A DNA stretch of 64,000 nucleotides, taken from Minisyncoccota bacterium. Lineage in GTDB: Bacteria > Patescibacteriota > Minisyncoccia > Phycocordibacterales > UBA9973. A program made the position numbers and the translations under genes. Shown piece by piece: positions 6,658-61,775 of this stretch; position 1 is the first letter of the stretch; each line of letters starts with the position of its first letter. The notes under the pieces are model-generated. The model made no database searches. It was given only the letters and a program-made list of their open reading frames with translations, and had not been told where the DNA came from. The stretch is taken from assembly GCA_041675085.1 (NCBI GenBank), contig JBAYUN010000001.1, positions 87,347 through 151,346 of the forward strand, in the 5' to 3' direction.

Positions 6658-7452
6658 ATGGAAACTGACACTTTAAATACGTATTCCGTAAAAATAGACC
6701 AATTTGAAGGGCCTTTTTCTGTATTGCTAGCAATGATAGAAGAACGCAAGCTTTTCATTAATGATATTTCTCTGTCTAGTATTACCGAAGACTATATAAG
6801 ATATGTAAATACTCATGATATTCCGCCTGGCTTGATATCGAATTTTGTTTTGGTCGCTTCAATGCTTATCTTGATAAAATCCAAATCTCTACTACCGACT
6901 CTAAACCTAACCAACGAAGAAGAAGGAGATATTAAGAATCTAGAAGAGAGACTCAAACTTTTTGAAATCTACTCAAACCTGTCTGTACATATAAAAAATA
7001 ATTTTGGTAAAAGAATTATTTTTGCTCCAGAAGAACGCAAACACAACAATGTAGTCTTCTTGCCTGATGCTCAAATCACACAAGAGAGCATGATGACTTT
7101 TGCTTCTACTCTTTTGAATAAAATTCCAAAGAAAAATCTAATCCCTCAAGTAGAAATAAAAAAAGTTATCAGCATCGAAGAAATGATCGATAAGTTGAAA
7201 GACCGCATCGAGAGTAGCCTCAGTATGAATTTTCGAGAATTCTCTGGTGTTGGTAGGACCGTCACTCGTGAAGAGAAAGTAACTATGATTGTAGGATTTT
7301 TAGCCATGCTCGAATTAGTCCGTGAAGGTATATTGCATGTGATTCAAGATAATAATTTTGAAGATATTACTATAGAGAAAAATAATATTGCATTAGATGA
7401 TGAAGAAAATGAAAATCCAGAAGAAATGAATGGAGAAGATGATATGTTATAA
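6658..7452 (+). CDS. scpA: Segregation and condensation protein A
   Basis: N-terminal KIDQFEGPFSVLLAMIEERKLFINDISLSSITEDYIRYV typical of ScpA; followed directly by scpB. Confidence 0.7.
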   Translation: METDTLNTYSVKIDQFEGPFSVLLAMIEERKLFINDISLSSITEDYIRYVNTHDIPPGLISNFVLVASMLILIKSKSLLPTLNLTNEEEGDIKNLEERLKLFEIYSNLSVHIKNNFGKRIIFAPEERKHNNVVFLPDAQITQESMMTFASTLLNKIPKKNLIPQVEIKKVISIEEMIDKLKDRIESSLSMNFREFSGVGRTVTREEKVTMIVGFLAMLELVREGILHVIQDNNFEDITIEKNNIALDDEENENPEEMNGEDDML

Positions 7453-7473
7453 TAATATAAAAATATATGAATC

Positions 7474-7570
7474 CCGTTAGATATTTTAAAGAACGGGCAT
7501 GAATGAAATAGTGTTATTCAAATTAATAACTTACAAGAAAATTAATAATTAATCAAAAATATTTAACGGG
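7474..7570. repeat. Inverted-repeat element with arms CCCGTTA(A/G)ATATTTT...AAAATATTTAACGGG; right arm abuts the scpB ATG
   Basis: Same arm (catcccgttaaatatttttgattaa) directly abuts the start codons of the genes at 30388 and 37817; a second inverted arm lies at 37895-37918. Confidence 0.55.
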
Positions 7571-8119
7571 ATGAATAATTTAGAAACAAAAATAGAAGCA
7601 TTACTTTTCTTTAAAGCTGAACCTGTGAGCCTTAAGAAATTGGAAGATTTACTAAAAGTCTCGAAAACAGAAATCCTAGAAGCACTAGAGAGTTTAAAGA
7701 ATAATTTATCAAATCGAGGTATTGTTTTGATGGAAAAAGACGAAGAGTATACTATTGCTGTCAGCCCAGTCTATAGTGATATGATAGAAGAAATTCAAAA
7801 AGAAGAATTGAATCGTGATTTATCAAAAGCTAGTCTAGAGACTTTGTCTATAATCCTCTACAAAAACGGAGCAAGTCGTAGCGAGATAGATTTTATCAGA
7901 GGAGTGAATTCGAGCTTTACCTTGAGAGCTTTACTCGTGAGAGGTCTGGTAGAAAAAGTTGTTTCTAATGAAGATAATAGAAAGTACGTCTACAAACCAA
8001 CTTTCGACTTATTGTCTTTTATGGGAGTTTCAAATATTTCTGAATTGCCAGGATGGGAAGAACTAAATAGTATGATAGAAAAAACTATTATTGAGAATAA
8101 TGAAGAAGAAATATCTTAA
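7571..8119 (+). CDS. scpB: Segregation and condensation protein B
   Basis: IEALLFFKAEPVSLKKLEDLL and tandem winged-helix pattern; adjacent to scpA. Confidence 0.75.
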   Translation: MNNLETKIEALLFFKAEPVSLKKLEDLLKVSKTEILEALESLKNNLSNRGIVLMEKDEEYTIAVSPVYSDMIEEIQKEELNRDLSKASLETLSIILYKNGASRSEIDFIRGVNSSFTLRALLVRGLVEKVVSNEDNRKYVYKPTFDLLSFMGVSNISELPGWEELNSMIEKTIIENNEEEIS

Positions 8120-9034: not shown

Positions 9035-9316
9035 GTGATAATAGGGTATATGATATCGAGAATTATTTATTCTGTATTGGTTTTGTCGACAATTCTTTTC
9101 TGGCCTTTCTGGATATCATTATTTATGATTTTTATTGGAATGCTATATTTCAATAAATATTATGAAGGTCTCGCTCTGATTATTATTTTTGAAAGTCTGT
9201 ATTCTGTGCCCGAGGTCAAGATTTTTGATTTATATTTTGTCTACACTATATCTTTTTTCTTTGTTTTTGTCTTGATACAATATTTAAAAAAGAAATTAAC
9301 TCTAGATACTTTTTAA
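9035..9316 (+). CDS. Small 3-TM membrane protein
   Basis: 93 aa, three hydrophobic helices, directly upstream of PBP2. Confidence 0.4.
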   Translation: MIIGYMISRIIYSVLVLSTILFWPFWISLFMIFIGMLYFNKYYEGLALIIIFESLYSVPEVKIFDLYFVYTISFFFVFVLIQYLKKKLTLDTF

Positions 9317-9319
9317 AAA

Positions 9320-11104
9320 ATGATTATTAAAATATTTAAAAAAAATAAAATAAAAGGTGATAACTTTTTCGTAGAACCAGACGAGATATTTTTGGATTCA
9401 AAAAATTTACAAAATTTTGACACTCAGCAATTCGAAGGACGTATCGAGAAGCCTATTTCCAAACAAGTCGTCTTTGTAACAGGAGCTTTTTTCTTTCTAT
9501 TTATTTTTGTTTTCGGTTTTAGATTATTTCACCTCCAAGTTAATAAAGGCGAAGCATATTTTGCTAGAAGTGAGAACAACAAACTTTCTGAAGAGATTAT
9601 TTTTGCAGATAGAGGCATAGTCTACGATCGTAAAGGTGTCGAACTTGCTTGGAATAAGAAAATATTGAATGACGTTGTTTTAGACAAAGATGCTACTGTC
9701 TCTCTAGATGCCTTGGGTGAGACTGCAGAATCTACTGAACCTAAAGAAGAAATTAAAGACAATTTTATCTCAGTCCGTTCGTATTTATATCCTGGATTTT
9801 CTCATGTACTGGGATACGTATCTTCGCCTATTAAAGACAAGACTGGTAAATATTGGCAAGCGAACTTTATCGGTAAAGACGGGCTTGAGAAACAATACAA
9901 TGACAGAATCCAAGGCGAGAATGGTTCCAAAATAGTCGAAGTCGACGCCAGAGGCAAGGTGCATTCTGAAAATACAGTAAATCCTCCAAAAAGAGGACCT
10001 GATCTAAATACAACCATAGACGCAAAAATCCAACAAGATTTATTTAACTCAATTCAAAAATTGTCTGAGACTCATGGCTTTACTGGTGGAGCGGGAGTCG
10101 TCATGGATATTCATAATGGAGAAGTCCTCAGTCTAGTGAGTTATCCTGAATATAATGGAGAAGTTTTGTCCCTAGGCGAAGACAATAACATCATCAGCAA
10201 TTACATAACTGACAAAAGAAAAGTTTTCTTAAATAGAGCTGTCTCAGGTTTGTATGCACCCGGATCTATAGTCAAACCCTTTTTTGCTCTTGGAGCTTTG
10301 ATGGAAGGTATTATAAGTCCAGACAAATCTATTTTTTCTAGCGGTTCTATCTCTATACCGAATCCTTACGATTCTACAAAGCCTACTATATTTAAAGACT
10401 GGAAAGCGCATGGTTGGACTGATATGCGTGAAGCTATCGCTGTTTCTTCTGACGTTTATTTTTATAGTATTGGAGGAGGCTTCGACGGTCAGGTTGGGCT
10501 CGGTATTGCGCGTTTAGAAAAATATGCGAGATTATTTAATATTGGAGACAAGACAGGAGTGGATTTGCCTACAGAGAAATCTGGAGTCATACCAAATCCA
10601 GACTGGAAAGCTAAAAATTTCAAAGGTGAAGCTTGGCGTATTGGAAATACTTTTCACACTTCTATCGGTCAGTATGGTTTCCAAGTCACTCCACTTGAGA
10701 TGGCACGTGCTACTAGTACTTTGGCTAATGGAGGCAAAGTTGTCACTCCGCATTTACTATTAGGAGATAAAGAGTTAGAGGATAAAGTTTCAGAAATTAC
10801 TTTAGATAAAGATCAATTAAAAGTAATTCATGAAGGTATGAGAATGACTGTGACCGAAGGTACAGCAGCACCACTCAATGTGCCATACGTAAAAGTTGCC
10901 GCCAAGACAGGTACTGCTCAGATAGGTGTTTTGAAAAATAGAGTCAATTCTTGGGTGGTTGGATTTTTCCCGTACGAGAATCCTAAATATGCATTCACTA
11001 TTATGATGGAGTCTGGACCATCTACCAATGGAGTAGGGGCGACGTCTGTAATGCGTGAAGTCTTGGACAAAATGTCAGTAGACAACCCTGGTTATTTTGA
11101 ATAA
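9320..11104 (+). CDS. mrdA: Penicillin-binding protein 2 / peptidoglycan D,D-transpeptidase
   Basis: N-terminal TM; transpeptidase motifs SIVKP (SxxK), SSD (SxN), KTGTA. Confidence 0.8.
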   Translation: MIIKIFKKNKIKGDNFFVEPDEIFLDSKNLQNFDTQQFEGRIEKPISKQVVFVTGAFFFLFIFVFGFRLFHLQVNKGEAYFARSENNKLSEEIIFADRGIVYDRKGVELAWNKKILNDVVLDKDATVSLDALGETAESTEPKEEIKDNFISVRSYLYPGFSHVLGYVSSPIKDKTGKYWQANFIGKDGLEKQYNDRIQGENGSKIVEVDARGKVHSENTVNPPKRGPDLNTTIDAKIQQDLFNSIQKLSETHGFTGGAGVVMDIHNGEVLSLVSYPEYNGEVLSLGEDNNIISNYITDKRKVFLNRAVSGLYAPGSIVKPFFALGALMEGIISPDKSIFSSGSISIPNPYDSTKPTIFKDWKAHGWTDMREAIAVSSDVYFYSIGGGFDGQVGLGIARLEKYARLFNIGDKTGVDLPTEKSGVIPNPDWKAKNFKGEAWRIGNTFHTSIGQYGFQVTPLEMARATSTLANGGKVVTPHLLLGDKELEDKVSEITLDKDQLKVIHEGMRMTVTEGTAAPLNVPYVKVAAKTGTAQIGVLKNRVNSWVVGFFPYENPKYAFTIMMESGPSTNGVGATSVMREVLDKMSVDNPGYFE

Positions 11105-14416: not shown

Positions 14417-14641
14417 ATGCACACATCAAGAACATTGTTAATTATTGGAATTTGGACAGCGATATTACCTTATTTGGGTTTTCCTTCTTTGATTAAAAAT
14501 ATCCTGTTTGTAATCACGGGTTTTATCCTTATTTATATTAGTCTAGTCTTATACAAGAATTCTAAAAAAGAAACTCCTATCAAAAGGATGTTTGAAAACT
14601 TCTCAGAAAATTTACCTTTTAGAGATAAAAGAATGAATTAA
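14417..14641 (+). CDS. Small 2-TM membrane protein
   Basis: 74 aa, two hydrophobic helices. Confidence 0.35.
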   Translation: MHTSRTLLIIGIWTAILPYLGFPSLIKNILFVITGFILIYISLVLYKNSKKETPIKRMFENFSENLPFRDKRMN

Positions 14642-29683: not shown

Positions 29684-30388
29684 TTATTTTATTGTTATGC
29701 TTTTGATAATAACAGGTTCTAAGGGTTTATCACTAGGATCTGTAGGAGTCTTGTTTATATCGTAAACCACTTCCATACCTGAGGTAACTTTACCGAAAAC
29801 TGTATGCTTTGGGTCTAGGAAATTATTGGCAGCTACGTTGATAAAGAATTGACTGCCGTTTGTATTCGGGCCTGCATTTGCCATAGATAGAGTTCCTACA
29901 TCATTCTTGTTTGAAGCGGTGATCTCATCTTCAAATTTATATCCCGGACCGCCAGTACCCCAAGAAGATTTTAAACTATCATCTTTAGATAAAGGGTCTC
30001 CAGCTTGGTTCATAAAGCCTTCTATAACACGGTGAAACTTTGTATCATTATAAAATCCTTGTTGCGCTAATTTTACGAAATTAGCTACTGTTTTTGGAGT
30101 TAAGTCTCCAAAAAGCTCTACTGTAAATGTGCCCTTAGTTGTATTGAATGTTGCTTGCATAGTTTTTTTGTTGTTATTATTAATTTTAATTTCTTCTTGA
30201 TTTTTAATTACTTCTTCTTGATTTGGATTTGTTGTGATTTCATTTTCTTGTGTTTCTGTTTGAATTTCTTGATCTATCACCTTCTCGCTATTTGATAAAT
30301 CTACAGTAGCGACTTTATTTTGAATATAGAAATAAATACCCAAACCCAAAAGACAAATTACAGAAATTACTATTATGATATTCTTCAT
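29684..30388 (-). CDS. Cyclophilin-type peptidyl-prolyl cis-trans isomerase, membrane/secreted
   Basis: FHRVIEGFMNQAGDP, GTLSMANAGPNTNGSQFFI cyclophilin signatures; N-terminal TM. Confidence 0.8.
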   Translation of the reverse strand: MKNIIIVISVICLLGLGIYFYIQNKVATVDLSNSEKVIDQEIQTETQENEITTNPNQEEVIKNQEEIKINNNNKKTMQATFNTTKGTFTVELFGDLTPKTVANFVKLAQQGFYNDTKFHRVIEGFMNQAGDPLSKDDSLKSSWGTGGPGYKFEDEITASNKNDVGTLSMANAGPNTNGSQFFINVAANNFLDPKHTVFGKVTSGMEVVYDINKTPTDPSDKPLEPVIIKSITIK

Positions 30389-30441
30389 CCCGTTAAATAT
30401 TTTTGATTAACTTATAATATAAACACACGTTTCAATTTAAT

Positions 30442-36455: not shown

Positions 36456-37817
36456 TTAAATACTCTCCGGCACATCAAATATAGTTTTCTCTAATTTTTC
36501 TTTCAAAAATATTTCACTAATTCTCTTGCCTCCATACACAGACGGCAATATTCCTACCCCATTACAACCTAGATTATACAATAAGGTTTTATTCTTTGGT
36601 TCGGGTCCGATGAGTCGAATACCGTTTCTCGTATAGCCCATAAGTCCGTGCCATGTATACACATAATCTATTTCTTTATTTGGTTCTTTGTCATACACAG
36701 ACCTGACAAAATCATCAATAGTTTTCACCATCTCGTCAGGAAATTCATTTTTCCTAGAATACAATCTCCCGTCTTCAATATCTATCTCAGGTCCACCGAT
36801 AGAAATCAAATTATAATTTTTATCCATTTCATAATTCCTACGAGTGAGATAAAAATACGGATCATCTGTAGTCGCGTCTGGATTAGTAAAATAACTAATA
36901 GCGATAGGATTCTTGTCCATAGGCTCTAAGTATCCAGACATATAACCAATAGTCCCTTTGACTAGGTGATGGAATTTTGTATCAATATCAAGGCCTCCTT
37001 CATTTAAAATATGAAATCCTTCAAAGCCATTGGTGCACAAGATTATATTTTTTGCCTCGACGGTATGAGTCTCAGCGTCCAGTATCGCATAGTCATCTTT
37101 TAATACAACTTTATTAATTAAAGTTTTCTCATAAAGATGAAATCTATCTCCATATTTTTCAATTAGATAGAGCAATACTTCCTCGCAGAACAAAGCGCTA
37201 TTCACACAACCTTTTTGATACGACAATACAGCTACAAAACTCTCATCCTGAGTCTCTAGTAATTCTAAGATATTTTTATGAACTGCTAGAGTATATAAAT
37301 CTTGATATTCATGAGGTATTTCGTTAATAAAATCCGCCTCTGACGATATTAGGATTCTCTCAATATCTAATCCTCCTCTTTTTCTAAAGAAATTATTCTT
37401 AAGATGCAACAAGACTTGATCAAAACTCGAAAGTCCAGCGTGACCTAAAAATCTAGAGAAATTAATATCGAGTCGTGCATCGGTATACATCTCGTCGAGC
37501 AGATTCCAGGCATCTTCAATATCTCTCTGACCCCGACTTGCGAGTTCGAGTCCAAAACTATCTACAAGGCTCGCAAATCCCCTCTCAAAATAACTCACGA
37601 CTTGTCCGGCATTATGACCCGTCGAACCATGAGCTAATTTATTTTTTTCTAAAACGACCACATTTTTATCAGTATATTTCAACAAGAAAAAAGCCGTCGA
37701 AATACCAGCGATACCTGCGCCCATGATTGCTATATCTGTTTTGATATCTTGATCTAATTTAAAATGAACTCTATCTTTGCGTAATTGAGTTAGCCAGGGT
37801 GATTTATTTTCTTTCAT
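36456..37817 (-). CDS. FAD-dependent oxidoreductase (DAO family)
   Basis: DIAIMGAGIAGISTAFFL Rossmann motif. Confidence 0.65.
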   Translation of the reverse strand: MKENKSPWLTQLRKDRVHFKLDQDIKTDIAIMGAGIAGISTAFFLLKYTDKNVVVLEKNKLAHGSTGHNAGQVVSYFERGFASLVDSFGLELASRGQRDIEDAWNLLDEMYTDARLDINFSRFLGHAGLSSFDQVLLHLKNNFFRKRGGLDIERILISSEADFINEIPHEYQDLYTLAVHKNILELLETQDESFVAVLSYQKGCVNSALFCEEVLLYLIEKYGDRFHLYEKTLINKVVLKDDYAILDAETHTVEAKNIILCTNGFEGFHILNEGGLDIDTKFHHLVKGTIGYMSGYLEPMDKNPIAISYFTNPDATTDDPYFYLTRRNYEMDKNYNLISIGGPEIDIEDGRLYSRKNEFPDEMVKTIDDFVRSVYDKEPNKEIDYVYTWHGLMGYTRNGIRLIGPEPKNKTLLYNLGCNGVGILPSVYGGKRISEIFLKEKLEKTIFDVPESI

Positions 37818-37957
37818 CCCGTTAAATATTTTTGATTAATTTATAATTTTTATACATGTTATAATTCTTTAATTAAACTAATTTATTTATACCCGATATT
37901 TAAAATGTTTAACGGGATTCATACCCATATTATAACTGAAAAAGAGAGATATTAAAA

Positions 37958-39275: not shown

Positions 39276-39632
39276 TTATAATTTTTTGAAATTGATATAA
39301 GAAATAATTGTGACTACTAGTACTCCCACAGCAAAACCATATTGAGAAATATCATCTCCTACAAACAAATGAGAAGCTATAGCTCCAACTAAATCTATAA
39401 AAAATCCAGCATAAGCCCATTCACGAAGATTTGGGAATTTATTTTGCCACAGAGCAATAACTCCTAAAAACTTTGCTGTACCTAAGATATACAACATATA
39501 CAGAGGGTAGCCCAAATGTACAAATTGATCTACGGCTACCTGACTAAAACTCAATTCTCCAAAAGCGCCCGCGAGCATTACAGCTGACAAAAGTCCAGTA
39601 AAAATATAATAAACAATTTTTGTGTTTTTCAT
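39276..39632 (-). CDS. DoxX-family membrane protein
   Basis: 118 aa, 4 TM, DoxX-like. Confidence 0.5.
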   Translation of the reverse strand: MKNTKIVYYIFTGLLSAVMLAGAFGELSFSQVAVDQFVHLGYPLYMLYILGTAKFLGVIALWQNKFPNLREWAYAGFFIDLVGAIASHLFVGDDISQYGFAVGVLVVTIISYINFKKL

Positions 39633-39716
39633 AATTTTATTATATCAATAAGCTTTTTAAAAAGGAAATAACAAAACTACCTTATATTATAAGTGCATTT
39701 AGGATAATTATGGATA

Positions 39717-42177: not shown

Positions 42178-42197
42178 AAAACAAAATATTTGTATTA

Positions 42198-42235
42198 AAG
42201 CCTTTTCATTAATTAATGAAAAGGCTTTTTATTTT
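42198..42235. terminator. Intrinsic terminator (14-bp stem AAAGCCTTTTCATT/AATGAAAAGGCTTT plus T-run), likely bidirectional
   Basis: Read directly. Confidence 0.55.
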
Positions 42236-42265: not shown

Positions 42266-43060
42266 TTACAACCTTTTTAAAATATCTTTTTTATAATGCT
42301 TCAAATAAGCCACAAGGATAAAGCTAATAATAACCAACAAGAACCATGAAGTTATCTTAGACGTTGAGACCACGGACCATTGATGAATTTGACTCGGATA
42401 TTTCCAAGCACCGAAATACGTAGCGATATTCTCTGCGATCCAGATAAAGAAAGCGATAAGCAGAAAGGCGACGTTCATATACATAGAGCGGACTTTATTT
42501 GTCACAATAAAATTAACTTTAGTTTTAAAGAATAAAATAAACACAAAGAATATCAAAAACCAACGGGCGTCATATATATAATGATTGGTAAAGAAGTTCA
42601 AATAAATCAAAGCACATAAAATCACGCTAAGAAGATAATGTTTATAATTCACGAGTTCTAATTTCATAATCTTCCAAGACTGACTGATATAACTACCTAC
42701 CGCTGCATACATAAACCCACTATATAGAGGCACAGTACCTATTTTAAAGAATCCCTCTTCCGGATAACTCCAAGAAGCAACTCCTGGACTCGTCTTGTAG
42801 AGTTCGAGCACAAGACCGATAATGTGGAAAAGGAATATTACTTTAACCTCATCTTTAGTTTCTAATTTTGTAAAATATAAAATAGCTTGAATGACAACAG
42901 CTGAAATAAAAAGAAAATCATAACGAGCAAAATTTTCTAAAGGAATATAATTTGAAATAAAAAGTAAAATAAAAAACAAGCCCGCAAATATAGACGCTCG
43001 GGCTTGTTTGATACCAAAAATCCAAAATTCGTAAATATAATTTTTAAACTTGCTCGACAT
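42266..43060 (-). CDS. Polytopic membrane protein (DUF817-like)
   Basis: 264 aa, about 8 TM. Confidence 0.4.
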   Translation of the reverse strand: MSSKFKNYIYEFWIFGIKQARASIFAGLFFILLFISNYIPLENFARYDFLFISAVVIQAILYFTKLETKDEVKVIFLFHIIGLVLELYKTSPGVASWSYPEEGFFKIGTVPLYSGFMYAAVGSYISQSWKIMKLELVNYKHYLLSVILCALIYLNFFTNHYIYDARWFLIFFVFILFFKTKVNFIVTNKVRSMYMNVAFLLIAFFIWIAENIATYFGAWKYPSQIHQWSVVSTSKITSWFLLVIISFILVAYLKHYKKDILKRL

Positions 43061-43475
43061 ACTTTTTAAAATTCTCGAGTATTGCAGACCAGCCTGCTTT
43101 TTGAAGTTCTACGCTATTAGTTTCTTCTGGGGAGAATTCTTCTACTATTTTAGTATCACCGTTTTCTAAAGTTGAGAAAAATATATCGCATTCTCTGTTA
43201 TTTTCTTCCCCTTCAGCTTTATCCATAACATATTTAATACTTTTATATTCTTCTACTTCTGTATATGTACCAGTAAAATCAAAACTCTCACTACCGTCTT
43301 TGGCAGACATGCGAGTCAAAAATCTCCCACCCACCTTCAAGTCATTCTCAGCATGAGGGCATTCCCAAGTATCCGTAGCAAAAGCCCAACTTTTAATACT
43401 TTCTGGATCGTTCCAGTGTTTCCAAACTTTTTCAATATTTGCATGCACAATTGTTTCTATATGTATTTTTTGCAT
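43044..43475 (-). CDS. SRPBCC / AHSA1-like (activator of Hsp90 ATPase homolog) domain protein
   Basis: IETIVHANIEKVWKHWNDPESIKSW...FDFTGTYTEVEEYKSIKY pattern. Confidence 0.55.
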   Translation of the reverse strand: MQKIHIETIVHANIEKVWKHWNDPESIKSWAFATDTWECPHAENDLKVGGRFLTRMSAKDGSESFDFTGTYTEVEEYKSIKYVMDKAEGEENNRECDIFFSTLENGDTKIVEEFSPEETNSVELQKAGWSAILENFKKYVEQV

Positions 43476-43496
43476 AATTTTATTATACTACGAAAT

Positions 43497-43865
43497 TTAA
43501 GATTTTAATTTCCCAGATTCTTCTTTTAATCTATGTTTAATAATCTTGGTAATCAGCGATATTGGCAAGGGCTTATCATAAGGAAACCGGATGCAACCTT
43601 TTGAATAGCTAATCCCCTTTTTAGCCAGTTCTTCCTCAAAAGGTTTTATGCCTGACGGAGACGGATAGAATCCGAGATGCCCTTTCATAGCAGCATAATG
43701 CACAAAGTTCTTGCTATTGAGCTCTACAGTCGGCATACCATATTTTATAGATTCTACGCCTTTTGGGACAAGTTTGTTTACCAAAGTTCGCATTTCTTTT
43801 AATTTAGGCAGAAAATCTTTTGGTGTGTCTTTTATGTATTCATTTATATTTTTGTAATTTTTCAT
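43497..43865 (-). CDS. DUF1801 (YdhG/YjdC-like) protein
   Basis: INEYIKDTPKDFLPKLKEMRTLV...KYGMPTVELNSKNFVHYAAMKGHLGFYP...GCIRFPYDKPLPISLI. Confidence 0.55.
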   Translation of the reverse strand: MKNYKNINEYIKDTPKDFLPKLKEMRTLVNKLVPKGVESIKYGMPTVELNSKNFVHYAAMKGHLGFYPSPSGIKPFEEELAKKGISYSKGCIRFPYDKPLPISLITKIIKHRLKEESGKLKS

Positions 43866-43876
43866 ATGTATTTTTT

Positions 43877-44251
43877 TTAATTAATCTTAACCTTTCGTAA
43901 AATTTTCTCCATATCTCGCCCTTTTGCCAATTCGTCTACCAATTTATCCAAATACCTAACTTTTTGAGTTAAAGGATTTTTAATATCTTCAATTCGATAA
44001 CCACATATCATCCCTTTTATTAAATGTGCATTTTGATTTATTTTTGCCTTATGGAAAAATTCTTCAAAAGTAGCTTTGTTGTTTATAAATTTCTTTAGAT
44101 TAGTTTCGGTATATCCTGTGAGCCATTTGATAACCTTATGTAGCTCTTCTTTTGTTCTACCTTTCTTCTCTACCTTTATTACATAATAAGGATAAACAGA
44201 AGAAAAAGTCATCCCCGCCATACGTTCATCATGCTTTTTTAAATCTTTCAT
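43877..44251 (-). CDS. DUF2200 family protein
   Basis: MAGMTFSSVYPYYVIKVEKKGRTKEELHKVIKWLTGY matches DUF2200. Confidence 0.6.
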   Translation of the reverse strand: MKDLKKHDERMAGMTFSSVYPYYVIKVEKKGRTKEELHKVIKWLTGYTETNLKKFINNKATFEEFFHKAKINQNAHLIKGMICGYRIEDIKNPLTQKVRYLDKLVDELAKGRDMEKILRKVKIN

Positions 44252-44292
44252 AATTTTATTATATCAGATTATGTTTTATAAAATCTAGAATT

Positions 44293-44712
44293 TTATAGCT
44301 TTAAATACACTTCGAAAGCATTTGCTAAATTATCTATAATATTATAATTCTTATAGTCTTCTGGTCTAATCCAGATATACTCATCATGATCTTTACTTAA
44401 AACTATATTTTCATTCAAAGTTTCGCAAACGAAATATACACCTATCACTTGCCAGTTCTCGTCTTTAACTTTTGGTCTCCATTCCCCAACGCAAAAAGAT
44501 TGCAAAACTTGAATCTCTAAACCAGTCTCCTCATAAACTTCCCTTTTCAAACTCTCTTCCAATTTCTCTCCGGGTTTTATTCGTCCTCCTGGGACGTCAT
44601 ATTTAGCAAAATTAGTCCCATCTTCATAACTTGAAGATTCTTTCAATATCAAAATCTCTCCTTTTGTATTTTTAATAAAACCTTTACTCGCGACGAATAG
44701 TTTGTAATCCAT
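44293..44712 (-). CDS. NUDIX hydrolase
   Basis: Nudix box GGRIKPGEKLEESLKREVYEETGLEI. Confidence 0.75.
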   Translation of the reverse strand: MDYKLFVASKGFIKNTKGEILILKESSSYEDGTNFAKYDVPGGRIKPGEKLEESLKREVYEETGLEIQVLQSFCVGEWRPKVKDENWQVIGVYFVCETLNENIVLSKDHDEYIWIRPEDYKNYNIIDNLANAFEVYLKL

Positions 44713-44719
44713 GCTTTTA

Positions 44720-45238
44720 TTATATTAAATTTAAAGATTTATAATCCTTTATTAAACTTAAAGCTGTTTGTTTTTCAGTTGGGTTTTCTATATTATCTGC
44801 CCAGTTAGTTGCTTCAGTCAAATCGTCATTTGCCAAAAAATATAATAATTTTGTTATTTGATTCGAATTACGATTATCTTTATATTCAAGAGCTTTAGTT
44901 GAATACAATTTTGCTTTTTCTTTATCTTTCTTTTGAAAAAGAGCGCAACTAGTAGCGTGATGATACCAAAACCAAAGTATCGATTCTTTAGTATCTTTTT
45001 CTTCTTTTGTTAAACCAATATCTCCAACATTCTCTATCAAATTTTTAATTTTATTTATAATCAAATCAGAGTCCTCATAATCCCAAGAATAACTATCCAT
45101 CAATCTTTGATCTTCTTGAAAATACAAATCATGCAATTCTGCTGAATTTAGAACATCAAAAGTAGAATAAATAGAGTGCAAAGGACTTTCGTTTTTAGGT
45201 AAATCCCCTTCTGAATTATTTGTAAATGATTCTTTCAT
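44720..45238 (-). CDS. Hypothetical helical (TPR-like?) protein, 172 aa
   Basis: ORF with own leaderless promoter; no motif. Confidence 0.4.
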   Translation of the reverse strand: MKESFTNNSEGDLPKNESPLHSIYSTFDVLNSAELHDLYFQEDQRLMDSYSWDYEDSDLIINKIKNLIENVGDIGLTKEEKDTKESILWFWYHHATSCALFQKKDKEKAKLYSTKALEYKDNRNSNQITKLLYFLANDDLTEATNWADNIENPTEKQTALSLIKDYKSLNLI

Positions 45239-45270
45239 GCTTTTATTATACTATAAATTTAGAATTTATT

Positions 45271-45293
45271 TTAGCAAGGACGGTCCTTGCTAA
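45271..45293. repeat. 23-bp perfect palindrome TTAGCAAGGACGGTCCTTGCTAA, copy 1 of 3
   Basis: Identical copies at 45271-45293, 48381-48403 and 49258-49280. Confidence 0.7.
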
Positions 45294-45296
45294 TTA

Positions 45297-45335
45297 ACAA
45301 AACCCTTACTCGCGACGAATAGTTTGTAATCCATG
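45297..45335 (-). repeat. Duplicate (37/38 nt) of the NUDIX gene start plus upstream; forms a 14-codon remnant ORF (MDYKLFVASKGFVN) that ends inside the palindrome
   Basis: aaaacc[t/c]ttactcgcgacgaatagtttgtaatccatg present at 44677-44712 and 45297-45335. Confidence 0.65.
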
Positions 45336-45346
45336 TTTTGATTATA

Positions 45347-45742
45347 CTACAAATTCTCATCAAGGAACTTTTTTAAAGCAATCAAATCTTTCTTTTCTTT
45401 GTCATAATGATAAGAAATAATTCCTACTGATTCGGCGGATTTTGCAGCATCAGAATTGTGTTCAAAATAAATAACATCATTTTTATCAAAATTATATGTA
45501 TCAAGCAAGGTTTTAAAATAAACAGGTTCTACTTTATCAGGATTATGCTTCATTGTAAAAACAGGATAAGGCACAGAATCAAGACCAAATTTAATGATTT
45601 GCTCATCGTCAGCATTAGTTAGGATAAGTTTTGGATTTGGATATGTTTCAAGTAAATCAAATAATTCTTTATATTGAATATAATTACCTGCCTCGTTTTT
45701 TAGAATTATAGTATTCACCGCATCAATAAGTATCGTTTTCAT
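45347..45742 (-). CDS. Small HAD-like fold protein with degenerate motif I (putative)
   Basis: ILIDAVNTI (DxxxT instead of DxDxT), VIYFEHNSDAAKSAESVGI motif-IV-like; weak. Confidence 0.3.
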   Translation of the reverse strand: MKTILIDAVNTIILKNEAGNYIQYKELFDLLETYPNPKLILTNADDEQIIKFGLDSVPYPVFTMKHNPDKVEPVYFKTLLDTYNFDKNDVIYFEHNSDAAKSAESVGIISYHYDKEKKDLIALKKFLDENL

Positions 45743-45754
45743 ATTTTTATTATA

Positions 45755-46081
45755 CTACAATCTAAATTCAAAATTAATAATCTTAACTTCTGTGTCTTTA
45801 TTTACTTTATCTCCATAGAATTTCTTAAAATCCGAATACATATCTTCATCAGAATCATACCGAGCGTGCCCTACCCAGTCTTCTTCATTCAAAGTACCAA
45901 GGGTTTTAATTTTAAGAGAAATTATTTTCCCATATCCAAAAGTCTCAAGAGTTTCTTTGTTTATAAATTCAAGCTCATCCCCAAGTTTTAAATCCTTATC
46001 ATCAAAAAGCCTCCAAGTAGTAGTCTTTTCTCCTGTCAGTATTTTATCAACTAAATCTGAATTAAATTTTATGGGTTTCAT
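45755..46081 (-). CDS. ASCH (PUA-like) domain protein
   Basis: VDKILTGEKTTTWRLFDDKDLKLGDELEF resembles the ASCH core. Confidence 0.45.
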   Translation of the reverse strand: MKPIKFNSDLVDKILTGEKTTTWRLFDDKDLKLGDELEFINKETLETFGYGKIISLKIKTLGTLNEEDWVGHARYDSDEDMYSDFKKFYGDKVNKDTEVKIINFEFRL

Positions 46082-46095
46082 TATATTGCTTACAT

Positions 46096-47022
46096 TTAAT
46101 TATTGATATATTTAGGAAATACCAACTGGAACATTTCAGCCTCTTTTAACAACCATTCAAAGTAATCGCTCCATTTAGCCTCATTTTCAAAATCACCTTT
46201 TAGGGAAATCTTAATTCTACTAGCCTTCTTGTTAGGTAACTCCATCCATTCTAATTTTTCATTTAATTCACCTTCTATTTTATCTTTATTACTCAAGATA
46301 TTAGCATACAGCTCTTTATTATTTGAGATATAAATCTCTACACCAAGAAACCCGTCTCTTGAATTAAGAGTCAAAGAAAGACTACATTCACTGCTACCAA
46401 TACTTATGTTTGTCCAATGTTGAGGATAACTTTTTTGAAAACGCAATTTAGTATTATTTTGTTTTGCAAAACTTTTGAATTCATCCCAAAATTGAAGTTG
46501 TTTAATTTTAGTTTCAGTTAGCTCTAAACTTTCAGTAGTACTCTTTAAGACTTTTGCCCAATCATTGGGCTTTGAAATTATTTCAAACTTAGGAGCAAAA
46601 GGAGAATCAGCAATTTGCCAAAGTTCTATCTTTAACAAATAGAAACCAATCTCTTCATTGGTATTTTCATTAAGCCAGTCTATTGCTTTTCTATGTTCTT
46701 CTCTAACATCCTTAACTACCCATAAAATAATCCTTGCATCATAACCAGAAGCATAAGTGATAAGTTTACCTAAATGATCATGATTAGTTATCTCTAACTG
46801 ATTTTCAATAATTATTTTATGACCAGTACTTTCTTCTTCTGCCAGAATATCAACATTAAAACTCCCAACTTTTGCTTCAGTCTGAATTAATTTTATGTCA
46901 AAACCAATTTCATCACCCAAGAGATCAAGATTTTCTTCTTGTGCTAACCATTTAGTAAAGTCATTAGCTTCATGTTTCCAACCTTCACGTAATTCAATTT
47001 TTTTAAGTTTTCCTAAATTCAT
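46096..47022 (-). CDS. PD-(D/E)xK / NucS-like nuclease-fold N-terminal domain plus DUF4268-like C-terminal domain protein
   Basis: ELREGWKHEANDFTKWLA..LGDEIG..IQTEAKVGSFNVDILAEE..GHKIIIENQL (D..E.Q) pattern. Confidence 0.4.
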   Translation of the reverse strand: MNLGKLKKIELREGWKHEANDFTKWLAQEENLDLLGDEIGFDIKLIQTEAKVGSFNVDILAEEESTGHKIIIENQLEITNHDHLGKLITYASGYDARIILWVVKDVREEHRKAIDWLNENTNEEIGFYLLKIELWQIADSPFAPKFEIISKPNDWAKVLKSTTESLELTETKIKQLQFWDEFKSFAKQNNTKLRFQKSYPQHWTNISIGSSECSLSLTLNSRDGFLGVEIYISNNKELYANILSNKDKIEGELNEKLEWMELPNKKASRIKISLKGDFENEAKWSDYFEWLLKEAEMFQLVFPKYINN

Positions 47023-47310
47023 ATTAATATTTATTAATGTTTTATTAATTTACCTACATATCCCTAATAAGTTCCAATTTCTTGTCTCTACTCCATCGCT
47101 TCAACTCCGCCTCTCGTTTTCTGGATTCGTTATATGTCTCGAATTCTTCTTTGTATTTTAGGATTACTGGTCGGCGGATTTTTGTATAATGGGCACCAGA
47201 TTTTGAATTATTATGCTATACCAATCTACGTTCTAGGTTATTTGTAGACCCTACGTACAAGGTTTTGTCTTTGCATTCTAAGATATAAACAAAATACATA
47301 ATAAGTAAAA

Positions 47311-47706
47311 CTAAAAATTACCGCTCAAGTACAAACCTAAAACTGTCATAGACAGCATAAGAATAGCAGGAATACTTTTTACAAAAGAATCTCTGACTTT
47401 AATATGCATACCGATAGCTCCAAGCATAAGGATAGCTAGGATTGCCAAAGCAGGCAAACCAAACAAAGCTAAAATATTTGCACTAAATAATCCGAGAATC
47501 ATAACGAGAGATATTGCTAGTTTTAAAAAGCCAACAATATACATAAACCAAACAGGTAGACCATAAGCAGAGAATTCTTCTTGCATGTTTTTTGCTCCCG
47601 CGCCACGATATTTTGTAGCCATAGAGAATCTCAAAATCCAAACATTAATAAGTCCAAAAGCAATGATAATTTGCAAAAAAGGCAGAACGAAAATATTTAT
47701 TTCCAT
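47311..47706 (-). CDS. DoxX-like 4-TM membrane protein
   Basis: 131 aa, four TM helices. Confidence 0.45.
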   Translation of the reverse strand: MEINIFVLPFLQIIIAFGLINVWILRFSMATKYRGAGAKNMQEEFSAYGLPVWFMYIVGFLKLAISLVMILGLFSANILALFGLPALAILAILMLGAIGMHIKVRDSFVKSIPAILMLSMTVLGLYLSGNF

Positions 47707-48011
47707 ATGAAAAAAATTATTAATAATATATACAAATTATCAACTAATATACATCGCTTTGCAAGGGTTTTAAATCTATTTAAATATCTAGTGCTTATAG
47801 CTATTAGTCAAAATGCACACTAGTTGTTTGCAATATAATTCTCTACTGCATGAATATCGATTAACTGATGTGGATGTTCATCGTCAGCTAGTTCTTTTTT
47901 ATAAGCAACTAAATCACGAGGATCAATAAGTGAAATTTCAATAGCATTGATTGTTTTAGATATTGTGGGGAATTTTCTAAAATGATCTTTTGTTTGAAAC
48001 CATTCTGTCTG

Positions 48012-48332
48012 CTATTTATTACTCATTTTCAAAGTATCAATATCTGTAATATCAATATCTTGATTATTATAGTTTAAACACAAGGTATCGCAATCCCACT
48101 TTGCATTTAAATAATGTTTTGGTCCAGAAGTAATATAATCTTTAGCTTCCGAAACGATGATAGGAAAATATTCTCCAGGCAATGAAAAATCTAAATCATT
48201 TACAGGACGAGATGAGCCATATACATGCGCAGCAAACCCTCCTCCAATACGGTAAGGTATATTGTGTTTATTTAATATACCTACGATCCATTTAAGTGCA
48301 TTTATTGTTTTTTCTTCTAATTTTATTTCCAT
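48012..48332 (-). CDS. ANT(2'')-like nucleotidyltransferase, N-terminal 106 aa; an in-frame TAG is followed by a further 63 open codons (47823-48011), so this is a disrupted gene or read-through candidate. ATG start at 48332 (MEIKLEEK); ORF track used an upstream TTG.
   Basis: IPYRIGGGFAAHVYGSSRPVNDLDFSLPGE is close to the ANT(2'')-Ia core LPLWIGGGWAIDARLGRVTRKHDDIDLTFPGE; downstream frame checked codon by codon. Confidence 0.5.
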   Translation of the reverse strand: MEIKLEEKTINALKWIVGILNKHNIPYRIGGGFAAHVYGSSRPVNDLDFSLPGEYFPIIVSEAKDYITSGPKHYLNAKWDCDTLCLNYNNQDIDITDIDTLKMSNK

Positions 48333-48380
48333 AAGAATATTATAATACAATCAATTTATTTTTTTGAGTTTTAGCGAGTT

Positions 48381-48403
48381 TTAGCAAGGACGGTCCTTGC
48401 TAA
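48381..48403. repeat. 23-bp palindrome copy 2, with tandem GCTAAAACTC duplication at one end
   Basis: Read directly. Confidence 0.7.
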
Positions 48404-48434
48404 TTATTTCCATATGAAAAAAATTATTAATAAT
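48404..48434 (-). repeat. Duplicate of the DoxX-like gene start region (47697-47727), giving a 9-codon remnant (MEIISKDRPC) that runs into the palindrome
   Basis: tttccatatgaaaaaaattattaataatat present twice. Confidence 0.6.
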
Positions 48435-48510
48435 ATTTTAAGTATACCATTTCGACCGTACTTGAGCACCTTTAAAAGCAGTAAATTTAAGTTATTTTTT
48501 ATTAATCTAC

Positions 48511-49209
48511 CTAAGAGGTAAATCTACATTTTGGAAAGGCTGAACACCCTAAGAATTTACCAAACTTACCTTCTTTTTCCAAAAGCTCATTGCCACATTT
48601 AGGACAAACTTGTTTAATATTATTTGCTTTAACAGTATCAACCTTTTTAACATTTTGAGCTATCCTGACATATTCAATCAACTTAAAGCTATCAACAAGT
48701 TCTATTGGTTTATCTTCTGCGAATTTTTCTGCTTCAAGAGTAAATTTATTTGTTGTTATAAAATACCCTTTACCATTCGCAACATGATCTGCTAATGCTC
48801 CATAAAAATCTCTCACAGCTCCAACTGGTACTTGGCTAGTGATGAACTTTTTACATTGTATGTAATTTATTATTCCGTTTTTTTCTGCAGTGACATCAAT
48901 TCCCCCATCATGTGACCTACCGACAGCATTTGTCTTATAGCCAAGTTGAAAGAAAAGATCAGCTATATATTTTTCAAATTCATTTGATTTCATTCCTCTA
49001 AGTTGCTGTAAAAGTTCTCTATCAGAACGCCATTCTTGACCATTTTTTATATTTCTTTTTCTTTTCCATTCAGCAATTTTATCTGGAACAATAACTTCAA
49101 GTAATATCTTTAATAACAATAATAATCCTAATCCAACCCAAATAGGCCATAAAGCAAAAAATCCGTGTAAAAAACTTTTATACAAAACAGAATAATCAAT
49201 AATTTGCAT
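48511..49209 (-). CDS. Membrane-anchored Mrr-type restriction-endonuclease catalytic domain protein with C-terminal topoisomerase-type C4 zinc ribbon
   Basis: GRSHDGGIDVTAEKNG..INYIQCKKF..VPVGAVRDFYGAL..KGYFITTNKFT (Mrr_cat pattern); CPKCGNEL..CSAFPKC zinc ribbon. Confidence 0.6.
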   Translation of the reverse strand: MQIIDYSVLYKSFLHGFFALWPIWVGLGLLLLLKILLEVIVPDKIAEWKRKRNIKNGQEWRSDRELLQQLRGMKSNEFEKYIADLFFQLGYKTNAVGRSHDGGIDVTAEKNGIINYIQCKKFITSQVPVGAVRDFYGALADHVANGKGYFITTNKFTLEAEKFAEDKPIELVDSFKLIEYVRIAQNVKKVDTVKANNIKQVCPKCGNELLEKEGKFGKFLGCSAFPKCRFTS

Positions 49210-49257
49210 AATTATATATTATCATAAAAGTGACAAAAGTGACCCAAAAGCAATACT

Positions 49258-49280
49258 TTAGCAAGGACGGTCCTTGCTAA
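49258..49280. repeat. 23-bp palindrome copy 3, with tandem TAATTAGCAAG duplication at one end
   Basis: Read directly. Confidence 0.7.
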
Positions 49281-49324
49281 TTACTTGCTAATTACAGATT
49301 TTTTAATACAATTTCTACTTATTT

Positions 49325-50221
49325 TTACGATTTCGTATATTCTAAAATAGTCTCATATACGATATCATCAGATATTTCATTAATATGACTCTTTATGATT
49401 TCTTCTTTTTCTTGATAAATATTAGAAAAAATTACATACATTTTCTCGTAAGCATCTTGAATACTTTGATACTTATTCTTTTTATTTAAATTTTTCTCAT
49501 CTTTAATTAGTTCATTTAAATAATTTCTAAAATAATTAATCTGATACATGGACTCTAGAATTATTTTACTTTGCATAGGATCATTCGCTAATTTTTTATT
49601 CCTATCAGCACTCTCACCTCCCCAAGTTTTGAGTAATTTTTCTGCACTAGATTGCCTTGTACCAACTACAACTTTTGGCACCAAAAGCTCTTTGTGCTCA
49701 CCTGTACTAGGATCTTCAAAATATTTCAACTTAGGAATAAGACCATTTTTTAATAACAATTTAATACCATCTAATTTAGAAATAATATTTCTTTTATCAT
49801 TAGCAAAAGCCACATCAACACCAAGACCGAGATATTCCTCAGAATCTTCTTCTCTGTATATAGAAACTATATCTACGCCGTATTTAATATCATCATACCT
49901 AGAAGCAGGGACTACTTCTGTATTTTCACCTAGCCAATTATTAGACTCTATCTGATCAGCTAAAACAGCTTCTAGTAAAGAAGAGAGTTCTGTTTTATAT
50001 TTTTGTTCTTCATTGTTATGGAAATTTTCTTCTATCTTTCGCATCTCTTCTAAGTCAGCAAGAATTTCACTTTCTGGATAGATATCAACAAAGTCCATTT
50101 CTTTTGGACGAAATTGATCAACAATTTTTGCCTTCTTCTCATGCAAATGTTTCATGAGTTTTGGATTCTCTGATAAAGGAATAGGTTTGATAAGATTCAA
50201 ATTTTCAAATTTAAAATTCAT
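49325..50221 (-). CDS. Hypothetical protein, 298 aa, acidic, no recognisable domain
   Basis: Clean ORF; upstream carries the GTCACTTTT x2 motif. Confidence 0.4.
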   Translation of the reverse strand: MNFKFENLNLIKPIPLSENPKLMKHLHEKKAKIVDQFRPKEMDFVDIYPESEILADLEEMRKIEENFHNNEEQKYKTELSSLLEAVLADQIESNNWLGENTEVVPASRYDDIKYGVDIVSIYREEDSEEYLGLGVDVAFANDKRNIISKLDGIKLLLKNGLIPKLKYFEDPSTGEHKELLVPKVVVGTRQSSAEKLLKTWGGESADRNKKLANDPMQSKIILESMYQINYFRNYLNELIKDEKNLNKKNKYQSIQDAYEKMYVIFSNIYQEKEEIIKSHINEISDDIVYETILEYTKS

Positions 50222-50357
50222 TGCTGTGATGATTGAGCTAGAACCCCATGGCTCCGTACCCTGTAATATTATTTTTAATACTTATATTGTATCATTTCTA
50301 CACTACTTGAGCACGTCAAAAAGTGACAAAAGTGACACAAATCAAGAAAAAATAAAA

Positions 50358-50388
50358 AAGCCTAAGTTTTTCTTAGGCTTTTATTTTA
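50358..50388 (-). terminator. Intrinsic terminator after the 413-aa gene (AAGCCTAAG/CTTAGGCTT, flanked by A and T runs; bidirectional)
   Basis: Read directly. Confidence 0.6.
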
Positions 50389-57852: not shown

Positions 57853-58542
57853 TTAATTCTCCCAAAAAGTCCTGTTATTTATCTCTTCTTCTTGGTCTAG
57901 ATTAAGGTATTCCAATCTTGTTTTCGATCCATCCAGAATCTTATCATCCACAGAAACCAAAGGTGGTTTACCTCGAGCTGAATATTCTAAAGTTTTGAAT
58001 AAATAGCCGAAAAAAGATCCAGTATATCTATAAAGTCGTATGCAAGTTTTAATCTTGTCTTCCACTTCATCAGCATATCCTTTCCATCGATACATTTGCG
58101 GATAGCGATCAATCCAGTCGTCAGTAATAAAAGTAACCCACTTTATTAATTCCTGTTGAGCACAAACATTTCCTTTCTGGCCTATCCTCACCAGACTAAC
58201 AATCATCTTTTGTTGTATCTTTTTGTCTTGTTCATTCTCTTGAGCAATAAAAGTATACAACTTATCTTTATACTTATTTAAAATAAGATCAACTTCAGAT
58301 TGACGTTCATATAACTTTATATATTTCCGCTTGTATCGAATCCAGCGTTTTTGGAATGTTCTCTTTAATGATTGAGTGACAACATCCCAATCAACATCTC
58401 CATTCTCTGTTCTAAAATTAAGGCGGATATAATGATAGACAGGCTGACAATGCTGAAATATCCAAGAACTACTAAATGTCTTTGGGTCTTTTTCTTTTAA
58501 GGTTTTGTTTAAAACTCTGACGGCCATACTAAAACTTTTCAT
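57853..58542 (-). CDS. Hypothetical basic protein, 229 aa
   Basis: Clean ORF; R/K/Y/W-rich. Confidence 0.4.
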   Translation of the reverse strand: MKSFSMAVRVLNKTLKEKDPKTFSSSWIFQHCQPVYHYIRLNFRTENGDVDWDVVTQSLKRTFQKRWIRYKRKYIKLYERQSEVDLILNKYKDKLYTFIAQENEQDKKIQQKMIVSLVRIGQKGNVCAQQELIKWVTFITDDWIDRYPQMYRWKGYADEVEDKIKTCIRLYRYTGSFFGYLFKTLEYSARGKPPLVSVDDKILDGSKTRLEYLNLDQEEEINNRTFWEN

Positions 58543-61491: not shown

Positions 61492-61775
61492 AAACTTTGG
61501 ACGGTTTTATTTAGCCAAGTGGTAGCAAAAAGCTCCTAGCCAGGCCGACTACACCCTTGAGTGTAACCCATACCCCTTTCGAGATATGACCGTCCAAAGT
61601 AGCTCTGACTAAGAGTTCTTTACTTTGGACGGATTTATGACCATATCCTATAAACATTAAGGTTTTTAGGGGTTAGGTCGCTTATTAAGTTATAAAATAA
61701 TTCTAGCACATTTCAAGTGCTTTTGACATCCTAGCTTAGATTAGGAATTAGTGGTAATTAGTTACCAACAGATGA

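Follow-up and report, generated by a model that had tools for sequence, protein, structure and literature searches.

Why do so many small genes in one stretch of a patescibacterial genome begin behind the same short sequence, TATAAT followed by six nucleotides and ATG, and does this sequence represent a promoter, a translational signal, or the joint of a mobile gene cassette? The question is raised by 64,000 nucleotides of the Minisyncoccota bacterium assembly GCA_041675085.1 (contig JBAYUN010000001.1, positions 87,347 to 151,346), hereafter the window, and in particular by a same-strand array of 14 small accessory genes with strain-variable content on its minus strand (42266..50221). In an initial annotation, six genes of this region (starts at 43475, 44251, 44712, 45238, 45742 and 48332) were proposed to carry a near-identical leaderless promoter without a Shine-Dalgarno (SD) sequence, and to have been acquired as promoter-bearing cassettes. 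Taken together, this proposal is partly supported: the leaderless reading is strongly backed by sequence statistics, acquisition as cassettes only in part. All six starts are real ATGs of minus-strand open reading frames (ORFs), with TATAAT exactly 6 nt upstream. The near-identity of the upstream sequences was confirmed for five, whereas the gene starting at 48332 shares the hexamer and its spacing but nothing more. An SD sequence is indeed absent from these genes, as the gap between box and ATG measures 6 nt and SD-like words occur at the level of coding controls. We consider it likely that the motif represents sigma-70 promoters, at which transcription would start with the A of the ATG to give a leaderless mRNA.

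TATAAT-N6-ATG was found 15 times in the window compared to 2.03 ± 1.35 times in shuffled sequences (maximum 6), and in 12 of the 15 copies the ATG is the first one of an ORF that has 60 codons or more. When the spacer was varied between 0 and 24 nt, TATAAT preceded such ATGs 12 times at N6 and at most three times at any other distance. Of the 74 called ORFs, 11 have an exact TATAAT at spacer 6, and no other single spacer accounts for more than three. Allowing up to one mismatch, TATAATAAAAnnATG gave 11 matches in the window, where 0.87 are expected. With 33% GC, the window is rich in TATAAT-like words, and the motif might be taken for a chance product of AT-rich composition. Still, no shuffle reached the observed count and the spacer profile shows one sharp peak at N6, which together rule out a chance origin, the probability of which is negligible. 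A corresponding peak was observed in 89 low-GC contigs of other metagenomes (TATAAT before the ORF start: 60 at N6, 11 at N7, and no more than six elsewhere), and ORFs starting behind TATAAT-N6 do so with ATG in 91 cases, GTG in two, and TTG in none. SD-like words were detected upstream of 2 of the 74 window genes (about 1–3%), no more than in coding control windows, and an excess over such controls was likewise absent from all groups of Patescibacteria loci sampled (L003–L213). The sampled lineages thus seem to initiate translation without SD altogether, as far as upstream sequences can tell; an rRNA, wanted for the 16S 3′ end and its anti-SD, was not found in any of the compared loci.

The flanks of the box carry promoter signatures as well. 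In 76 instances outside the window, i.e. on other Patescibacteria contigs, T occupies position −15 in 75% and G position −14 in 68% of cases, corresponding to an extended −10 element (TGn), and a weak TTG is visible at −35 to −33. In front of the A at +1, 74% of these 76 instances and 11 of the 12 in the window have a pyrimidine at −1, which gives the dinucleotide favoured for initiation. Within the window, TG at −15/−14 is present at 44251, 39632 and 49209 and missing at 44712, at 48332 and in the TAGTATAAT subtype (43475, 45238, 45742 and a gene stub, see below), the latter falling outside the TGn definition because it has A at −14 and G at −13. A Pribnow box 6–8 nt from the start codon is an established signature of bacterial leaderless transcription, as described for GeneMarkS-2 group C (PMC6028130), for Deinococcus deserti (PMC4007540) and by Zheng et al. 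(PMC3160421); for the Candidate Phyla Radiation (CPR), the one set of transcription start sites (TSSs) found cited is that of Nanosynbacter lyticus (PMC12641261, Table 1). In the mechanism that we propose, a housekeeping sigma-70-type promoter would be, in essence, a −10 box, in many cases extended by TGn. The hexamer would occupy −12 to −7, six more bases would follow, and +1 would be the A of the ATG, 7 nt past the last T of TATAAT. The mRNAs would have no 5′ untranslated region and the ribosome would bind the 5′-terminal AUG directly, which fits a genome that does not use SD. The motif, its spacing and enrichment, the lineage-wide distribution, the flank signatures, the differences between strains and the lack of SD are what we observed, and TSS position, translation mode and the recombination mechanism discussed below are what we infer.

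The kind of element, a −10 box adjoining an ORF and giving rise to a leaderless mRNA, is known from Actinobacteria and Deinococcus. [quoted passage not shown] Differences concern the host, a low-GC member of the Patescibacteria apparently without any SD, so that internal cistrons would have no SD to fall back on, unlike in Actinobacteria. Moreover, the loose TANNNT of group C contrasts with a perfect TATAAT here, usually with extended −10 TGn and almost always at a spacing of 6. Extended −10 promoters (TGnTATAAT) are similar in the TG at −15/−14 (68–75% of lineage instances) and in the absence of a usable −35; the TAGTATAAT subtype departs from them.

The motif is not confined to the array. 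Exact TATAAT at N6 precedes 15% of the window's genes (24% for the looser TAnnnT at N6), compared to 24% (34%) in the syntenic arrays of relatives, 10% (21%) in other low-GC contigs that bear the palindrome described below, and 1% (8–11%) around a conserved synthetase gene across the phylum. The window also encodes, among others, an Asp/Asn-type tRNA synthetase, PBP2 and an M1 peptidase, and the synthetase is 77–79% identical to those of Candidatus Nomurabacteria/Paceibacteria metagenome-assembled genomes (MAGs); the window is part of a chromosome of this patescibacterial lineage. Orthologues of the array's 131-aa gene in four genomes, L208, L210 and L212 among them, retain a −10 at N6 with a different upstream neighbour in each, and those of a 163-aa gene keep TGcTATGAT or TATCAT at N6. 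In strain L203, which shares about 92% nucleotide identity with the window, all four shared TATAAT boxes are retained. For the gene at 57853–58542, which diverges from its neighbour, the motif is the sole promoter candidate. On these sequence grounds TGnTATAAT-N6-ATG is best described as the ordinary promoter architecture of the lineage and no special cassette, and it would serve as the normal expression route for monocistronic or first genes. Its prevalence in an apparently SD-free Patescibacteria lineage appears to be new, to the extent that the literature could be searched: it yielded no account of leaderless genes, or of REP/RAYT elements (see below), in Patescibacteria, and the BB001 genome note was discarded as a match since it cites GeneMarkS-2 and nothing more.

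The individual promoters, all on the minus strand, illustrate how narrow the variation is. The AHSA1/SRPBCC gene (43044–43475) starts with TAG TATAAT AAAATT ATG (43473..43490; upstream cgTAGTATAATAAAATT-ATG), identical in L203. The DUF2200 gene (43877–44251) has the extended −10 form TGA TATAAT AAAATT ATG (44249..44266; cTGATATAATAAAATT-ATG), for which L203 retains TATAAT and N6 with one substitution in the spacer. They are followed towards higher coordinates by the NUDIX gene (44293–44712) with TAA TATAAT AAAAGC ATG (44710..44727; TTAATATAATAAAAGC-ATG), a 172-aa gene (44720–45238) with TAG TATAAT AAAAGC ATG (45236..45253; aTAGTATAATAAAAGC-ATG), and the 131-aa HAD-like gene (45347–45742) with TAG TATAAT AAAAAT ATG (45740..45757; gTAGTATAATAAAAAT-ATG). 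The divergent sixth case is a 170-aa gene (47821–48332) with TAT TATAAT ATTCTT ATG (48330..48347; TGTATTATAATATTCTT-ATG), the orthologue of which in L210 is preceded by tagTATAATattctt-ATG. Three further starts had not been listed initially: the Mrr_cat gene (48511–49209) with the extended −10 variant TGA TAATAT ATAATT ATG (49207..49224; TGATAATAT-ATAATT-ATG), a 13-codon gene stub starting at 45334 (TAGTATAATCAAAAC-ATG), and, outside the interval considered at the time, a DoxX-family gene (39276–39632) with TGA TATAAT AAAATT ATG (39630..39647; TGATATAATAAAATT-ATG). Five more copies of the motif lie elsewhere in the window, at 14417 (plus strand), 30753, 31947, 56127 and 58542. The ATGs of the NUDIX and 131-aa genes are most probably true starts, as their homologues are of the same length and cover 96–100% of the query.

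The array is bounded by hairpin-plus-T-run terminators just below its low-coordinate end (42197..42228) and just past its high-coordinate end (50356..50382). The motif occurs at 9 of the 14 genes between 50.2 and 42.3 kb. Its special density here would follow from the compactness of this strain-variable array, in which most of the small accessory genes own a promoter. The genes without it (DUF1801, DUF817, GIY-YIG, DUF4268 and ASCH) start between −17 and about 31 nt from the preceding gene and look like internal cistrons. Gaps between genes measure 7–41 nt, with the consequence that the box or the preceding TAG doubles as the upstream stop and that any −35 would lie inside the 3′ end of the upstream gene. 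The ASCH stop codon is the TAG before the 131-aa box (45755–45757), the stop codon of the 131-aa gene is the TAG before the stub box (45347–45349), and that of the 172-aa gene is the TAA inside the TATAAT of the NUDIX promoter (44720–44722), and at the 43475 box the TAG repeats the stop of DUF1801 in frame, 9 nt past its TAA. All three elements, stop codon, promoter and start codon, are thus fitted into about 20 nt. Two array genes contain an in-frame TAG: the 170-aa gene at 48012–48014, where the L210 orthologue has Glu, and the GIY-YIG gene (47054–47299, minus strand) at 47216–47218, where the L203 orthologue has Gln. These are either fresh pseudogenes, population variants, or cases of TAG read-through; recoding of TAG seems unlikely because other array genes end in TAG.

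A number of observations weigh against a simple leaderless promoter in front of each gene. The TSS may be 1–2 nt off, or additional upstream promoters may contribute by read-through. There are no terminators between the array genes, so that longer transcripts probably include each gene as an internal cistron as well, and read-through is likely. A generic scan revealed no good −35 at any of these promoters; this −35/−10 scan, with 60 sites compared to 57.5 in shuffles, is uninformative in AT-rich DNA and was set aside. The TAG subtype is devoid of the TG at −15/−14 that is seen in most promoters of the lineage. Lastly, enrichment is much weaker around the conserved housekeeping gene, i.e. the synthetase surroundings quoted above, and the contrast in density may reflect phylogeny as well as context.

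If the motif is an ordinary promoter, the uniformity of its copies in the array calls for an additional explanation, and comparison of strains provides one. L203 differs from the window in gene content at the same array: AAA_15 and DUF4276 genes are found in place of DUF4268-ASCH-131aa, an additional 985-aa gene is located between DUF2200 and DUF1801, and the blocks of homology end at promoters or at the palindrome. The 172-aa gene of L203 is preceded by TTTGAATTTAGATTGTAGTATAATAAAAAC, which is the promoter of the window's 131-aa gene including the last ASCH codons; a deletion between two promoter repeats would give exactly that joint. Adjacent promoters are alike within a genome and different between genomes, with the spacers AAAAGC/AAAAGC in the window and AAAAAC/AAAAAC in L203. 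Similarly, two unrelated genes of L210, a dCMP deaminase gene and the 131-aa gene, share a 45-nt upstream module. Identical 6-nt spacers were counted in 4 of 66 window promoter pairs vs 25 of 4396 between-locus pairs. Across the lineage, TAG precedes about 5% of boxes, which is rare, and AAAA would be expected behind about 8%; by these frequencies, the TAG…AAAA subtype shows less variation than a lineage-wide consensus would lead one to expect. We tentatively attribute the excess similarity within the TAGTATAATAAAA subset to local reuse of promoter modules, which would proceed by duplication, short-repeat recombination or gene conversion. Close homologues of the array genes were absent from the first ~200 loci compared. 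Distant NUDIX homologues (61–71% identity) have no TATAAT at N6, and the idea of a promoter travelling with the NUDIX gene over long distances was rejected for this reason.

The same comparison brought up further variation. A GC-rich hairpin (CCGGACGT…ACGTCCGG) stands directly before leaderless promoter modules in L210 (2140–2190 and 3320–3365) and L208 (~9290–9335), and hairpin-plus-promoter may be a recurrent unit in related genomes. At the position of a 298-aa gene in the window, L203 carries an RVT_1 reverse-transcriptase gene (951–2161, 330 aa), and the 298-aa gene is reduced to a remnant of its last ~230 nt (window 49294–49526).

The palindrome TTAGCAAGGACSGTCCTTGCTAA, 23 nt in length, occurs in three identical copies in the window (45271..45293, 48381..48403 and 49258..49280), the third of which marks the end of homology with L203. 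Its TAGCAAGGACSGTCCTTGCTA hairpin comprises 10 bp and was calculated to −13 to −18 kcal/mol. All three left junctions read TAA|TTAGCAAGG. Two copies abut gene-start stubs, both of which are cut off at TAA by the palindrome (TTAGCAAGGACCGTCCTTGCTAA). The NUDIX stub (45294..45349, minus strand) consists of the promoter TAG TATAAT CAAAAC and the first 13 codons, is 91% identical to 44672–44727, and is cut at TTAA. The DoxX stub (48401..48436, minus strand) holds the leader and the first 4 codons, is 97% identical to 47694–47729, and ends ATAA against the palindrome, its interval taking in the first 3 nt (48401–48403) of copy 2. Behind each stub come a leaderless promoter and one extra gene before the source gene itself is reached in intact form, 0.6–0.7 kb downstream of the palindrome-abutting duplicate. 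The 21-nt core of the palindrome was found in at least 120 metagenome stretches (loci L083–L202), often with variable complementary flanks and nested partial copies. In L087, L119, L121, L145, L152, L169 and L177 it precedes a leaderless ORF starting MLRKDPFITGEYYH, which matches PF01797 Y1_Tnp (IS200-like) with 26.7 bits at a cut-off of 23; no copy of a Y1_Tnp gene was found in the window. Duplications of flanks beside the same palindrome were seen in the unrelated contigs L174 (10222/11783), L109, L179, L095 and L181.

With respect to these features, the palindrome looks like a repetitive extragenic palindromic (REP) element associated with a REP-associated tyrosine transposase (RAYT). In common with REP/REPIN and RAYT systems (IS200-like Y1 HUH enzymes), it is a short, conserved, intergenic repeat, widespread in relatives, with variable flanks at the base of the stem, and it flanks a Y1_Tnp-family gene in other contigs; the window itself is devoid of a RAYT gene. 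The likeness concerns the palindrome, which stands beside three of the promoters, and not the promoter motif. To our knowledge, 36–56-nt duplications abutting the palindrome are no described REP/RAYT feature. For the insertion, HUH-mediated joining, illegitimate recombination facilitated by homology, and hairpin slippage are candidate mechanisms. Intrinsic termination on the gene strand was set aside as the main role of the palindrome, since As and not Us come after the hairpin.

Could the array then be an assembly of mobile cassettes, as had been proposed? In its strict form, each small gene would move with its own leaderless promoter, with or without a REP-like hairpin, by a dedicated mechanism, candidates for which are a RAYT/HUH enzyme acting on the palindrome and homology-facilitated illegitimate recombination after DNA uptake, and near-identity would reflect common descent of the module. 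The gene-by-gene differences between arrays at ~92% identity, in blocks that end at promoters or palindrome, are in line with such movement, as are the two stub-palindrome-promoter-gene units upstream of a full source gene (repeats of 56 nt and 36 nt), the shared left junctions, the flank duplications in other contigs, the association of the palindrome with Y1_Tnp, and the occurrence of one module before different genes. Conversely, the motif is the lineage's general promoter, found before conserved genes too and kept at orthologues whatever their neighbours, and it is missing from the NUDIX homologues of more distant genomes. Just three palindromes are spread among 14 genes, and Pfam scans of the ORFs between 38 and 61 kb revealed no transposase, integrase or recombinase. 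An empty site, with the 131-aa gene directly followed by NUDIX, was not found in the contexts of the NUDIX and 131-aa homologues, and selection would leave intergenic breakpoints in any case. Integron arrays are reminiscent of the present locus in the same-strand run of small unrelated accessory genes that differ between close strains. Typically, an integron cassette has no promoter and relies on Pc for its expression, unlike here, where most genes own a promoter. Furthermore, an integrase is missing and the genes do not each have an attC-like site, the gaps holding the promoter only, apart from the three 23-nt palindromes among 14 genes, and an integron was rejected on these grounds. Overall, we regard a dedicated cassette mechanism as unlikely. 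What is left of the cassette proposal, and is partly supported by the strain-variable array, the breakpoints at promoters and REP palindromes, and the duplicated promoter-plus-gene-start stubs, is a reuse of promoter modules within an accessory array, rather than a dedicated cassette system. The bolder notion that leaderless modules (stop, TATAAT, N6 and ATG) and the RAYT-associated REP hairpin are the joints of a cassette-shuffling system of Patescibacteria is more speculative still. If true, the joints would be where genes enter, drop out or receive a new promoter, with promoter-plus-gene-start stubs left behind, and the result would be an integron-like array with one promoter per cassette and no need for an integrase.

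The close packing of the genes suggests yet another explanation, namely that the motif is no promoter but a translational signal in a polycistronic mRNA, i.e. an A/U-rich stop-codon junction for termination-reinitiation or S1-dependent initiation. Genes 7–41 nt apart without terminators would be compatible with this, the TAG or TAA of the motif is the stop of the upstream gene in three cases, and an organism without SD must have another signal for internal initiation. Yet an enhancer of translation needs neither an exact TATAAT at one fixed distance, nor TG upstream, nor a pyrimidine at −1. Some copies of the motif come behind palindromes or long gaps and one belongs to a divergent gene that receives no incoming message, and the five motif-less genes of the array are equally tightly packed. 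We therefore consider a translational signal very improbable and return to leaderless promoters as the preferred description of TATAAT-N6-ATG.

Two other elements of the window should be mentioned. A second upstream element, TAATCAAAAATATTTAACGGG-ATG, is present in three exact copies (7440–7573, plus strand; 37815–37950 and 30386–30409, minus strand). In two of these it ends a conserved leader of ~130 nt, which opens with TATAAT-N6-ATG and an 11-codon mini-ORF (MNPVKHFKYRV), and the CCCGTTAA of which has two possible, alternative pairing partners, an AACGGG close by and the TTAACGGG that immediately precedes the main ATG. The ~130-nt leader looks like a regulator of the attenuator or leader-peptide type and had no match in Rfam. 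A LOOT RNA (RF03000) was identified at 61547–61679 on the minus strand (79 bits vs a gathering score of 46.4), adjoining an Eco57I-type methyltransferase gene. At the gathering threshold, Rfam gave no match over the array region, the LOOT RNA at 61.5 kb being the one match.

A large part of bacterial diversity belongs to the Patescibacteria, or CPR bacteria, whose ribosomes are reduced and of which hardly any have been cultivated. Accordingly, the start of transcription and translation in CPR has largely been a matter of inference. The present data suggest that Paceibacteria-type lineages, as sampled here, do not use SD sequences, that a fifth to a third of their genes are expressed from −10-only promoters as leaderless mRNAs, and that genes are packed so tightly that stop, promoter and start overlap within ~20 nt. 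For the prediction of gene starts in CPR MAGs, the motif would pin the true ATG, and it may help in designing expression constructs for those few CPR bacteria that can be cultivated. It also bears on the link between ribosome reduction and the mode of initiation. As judged from the strains compared, the repeated promoter modules mark points of gene swapping, and their reuse, together with the REP/RAYT hairpins at strain breakpoints, would offer a handle on accessory-gene turnover in streamlined genomes.

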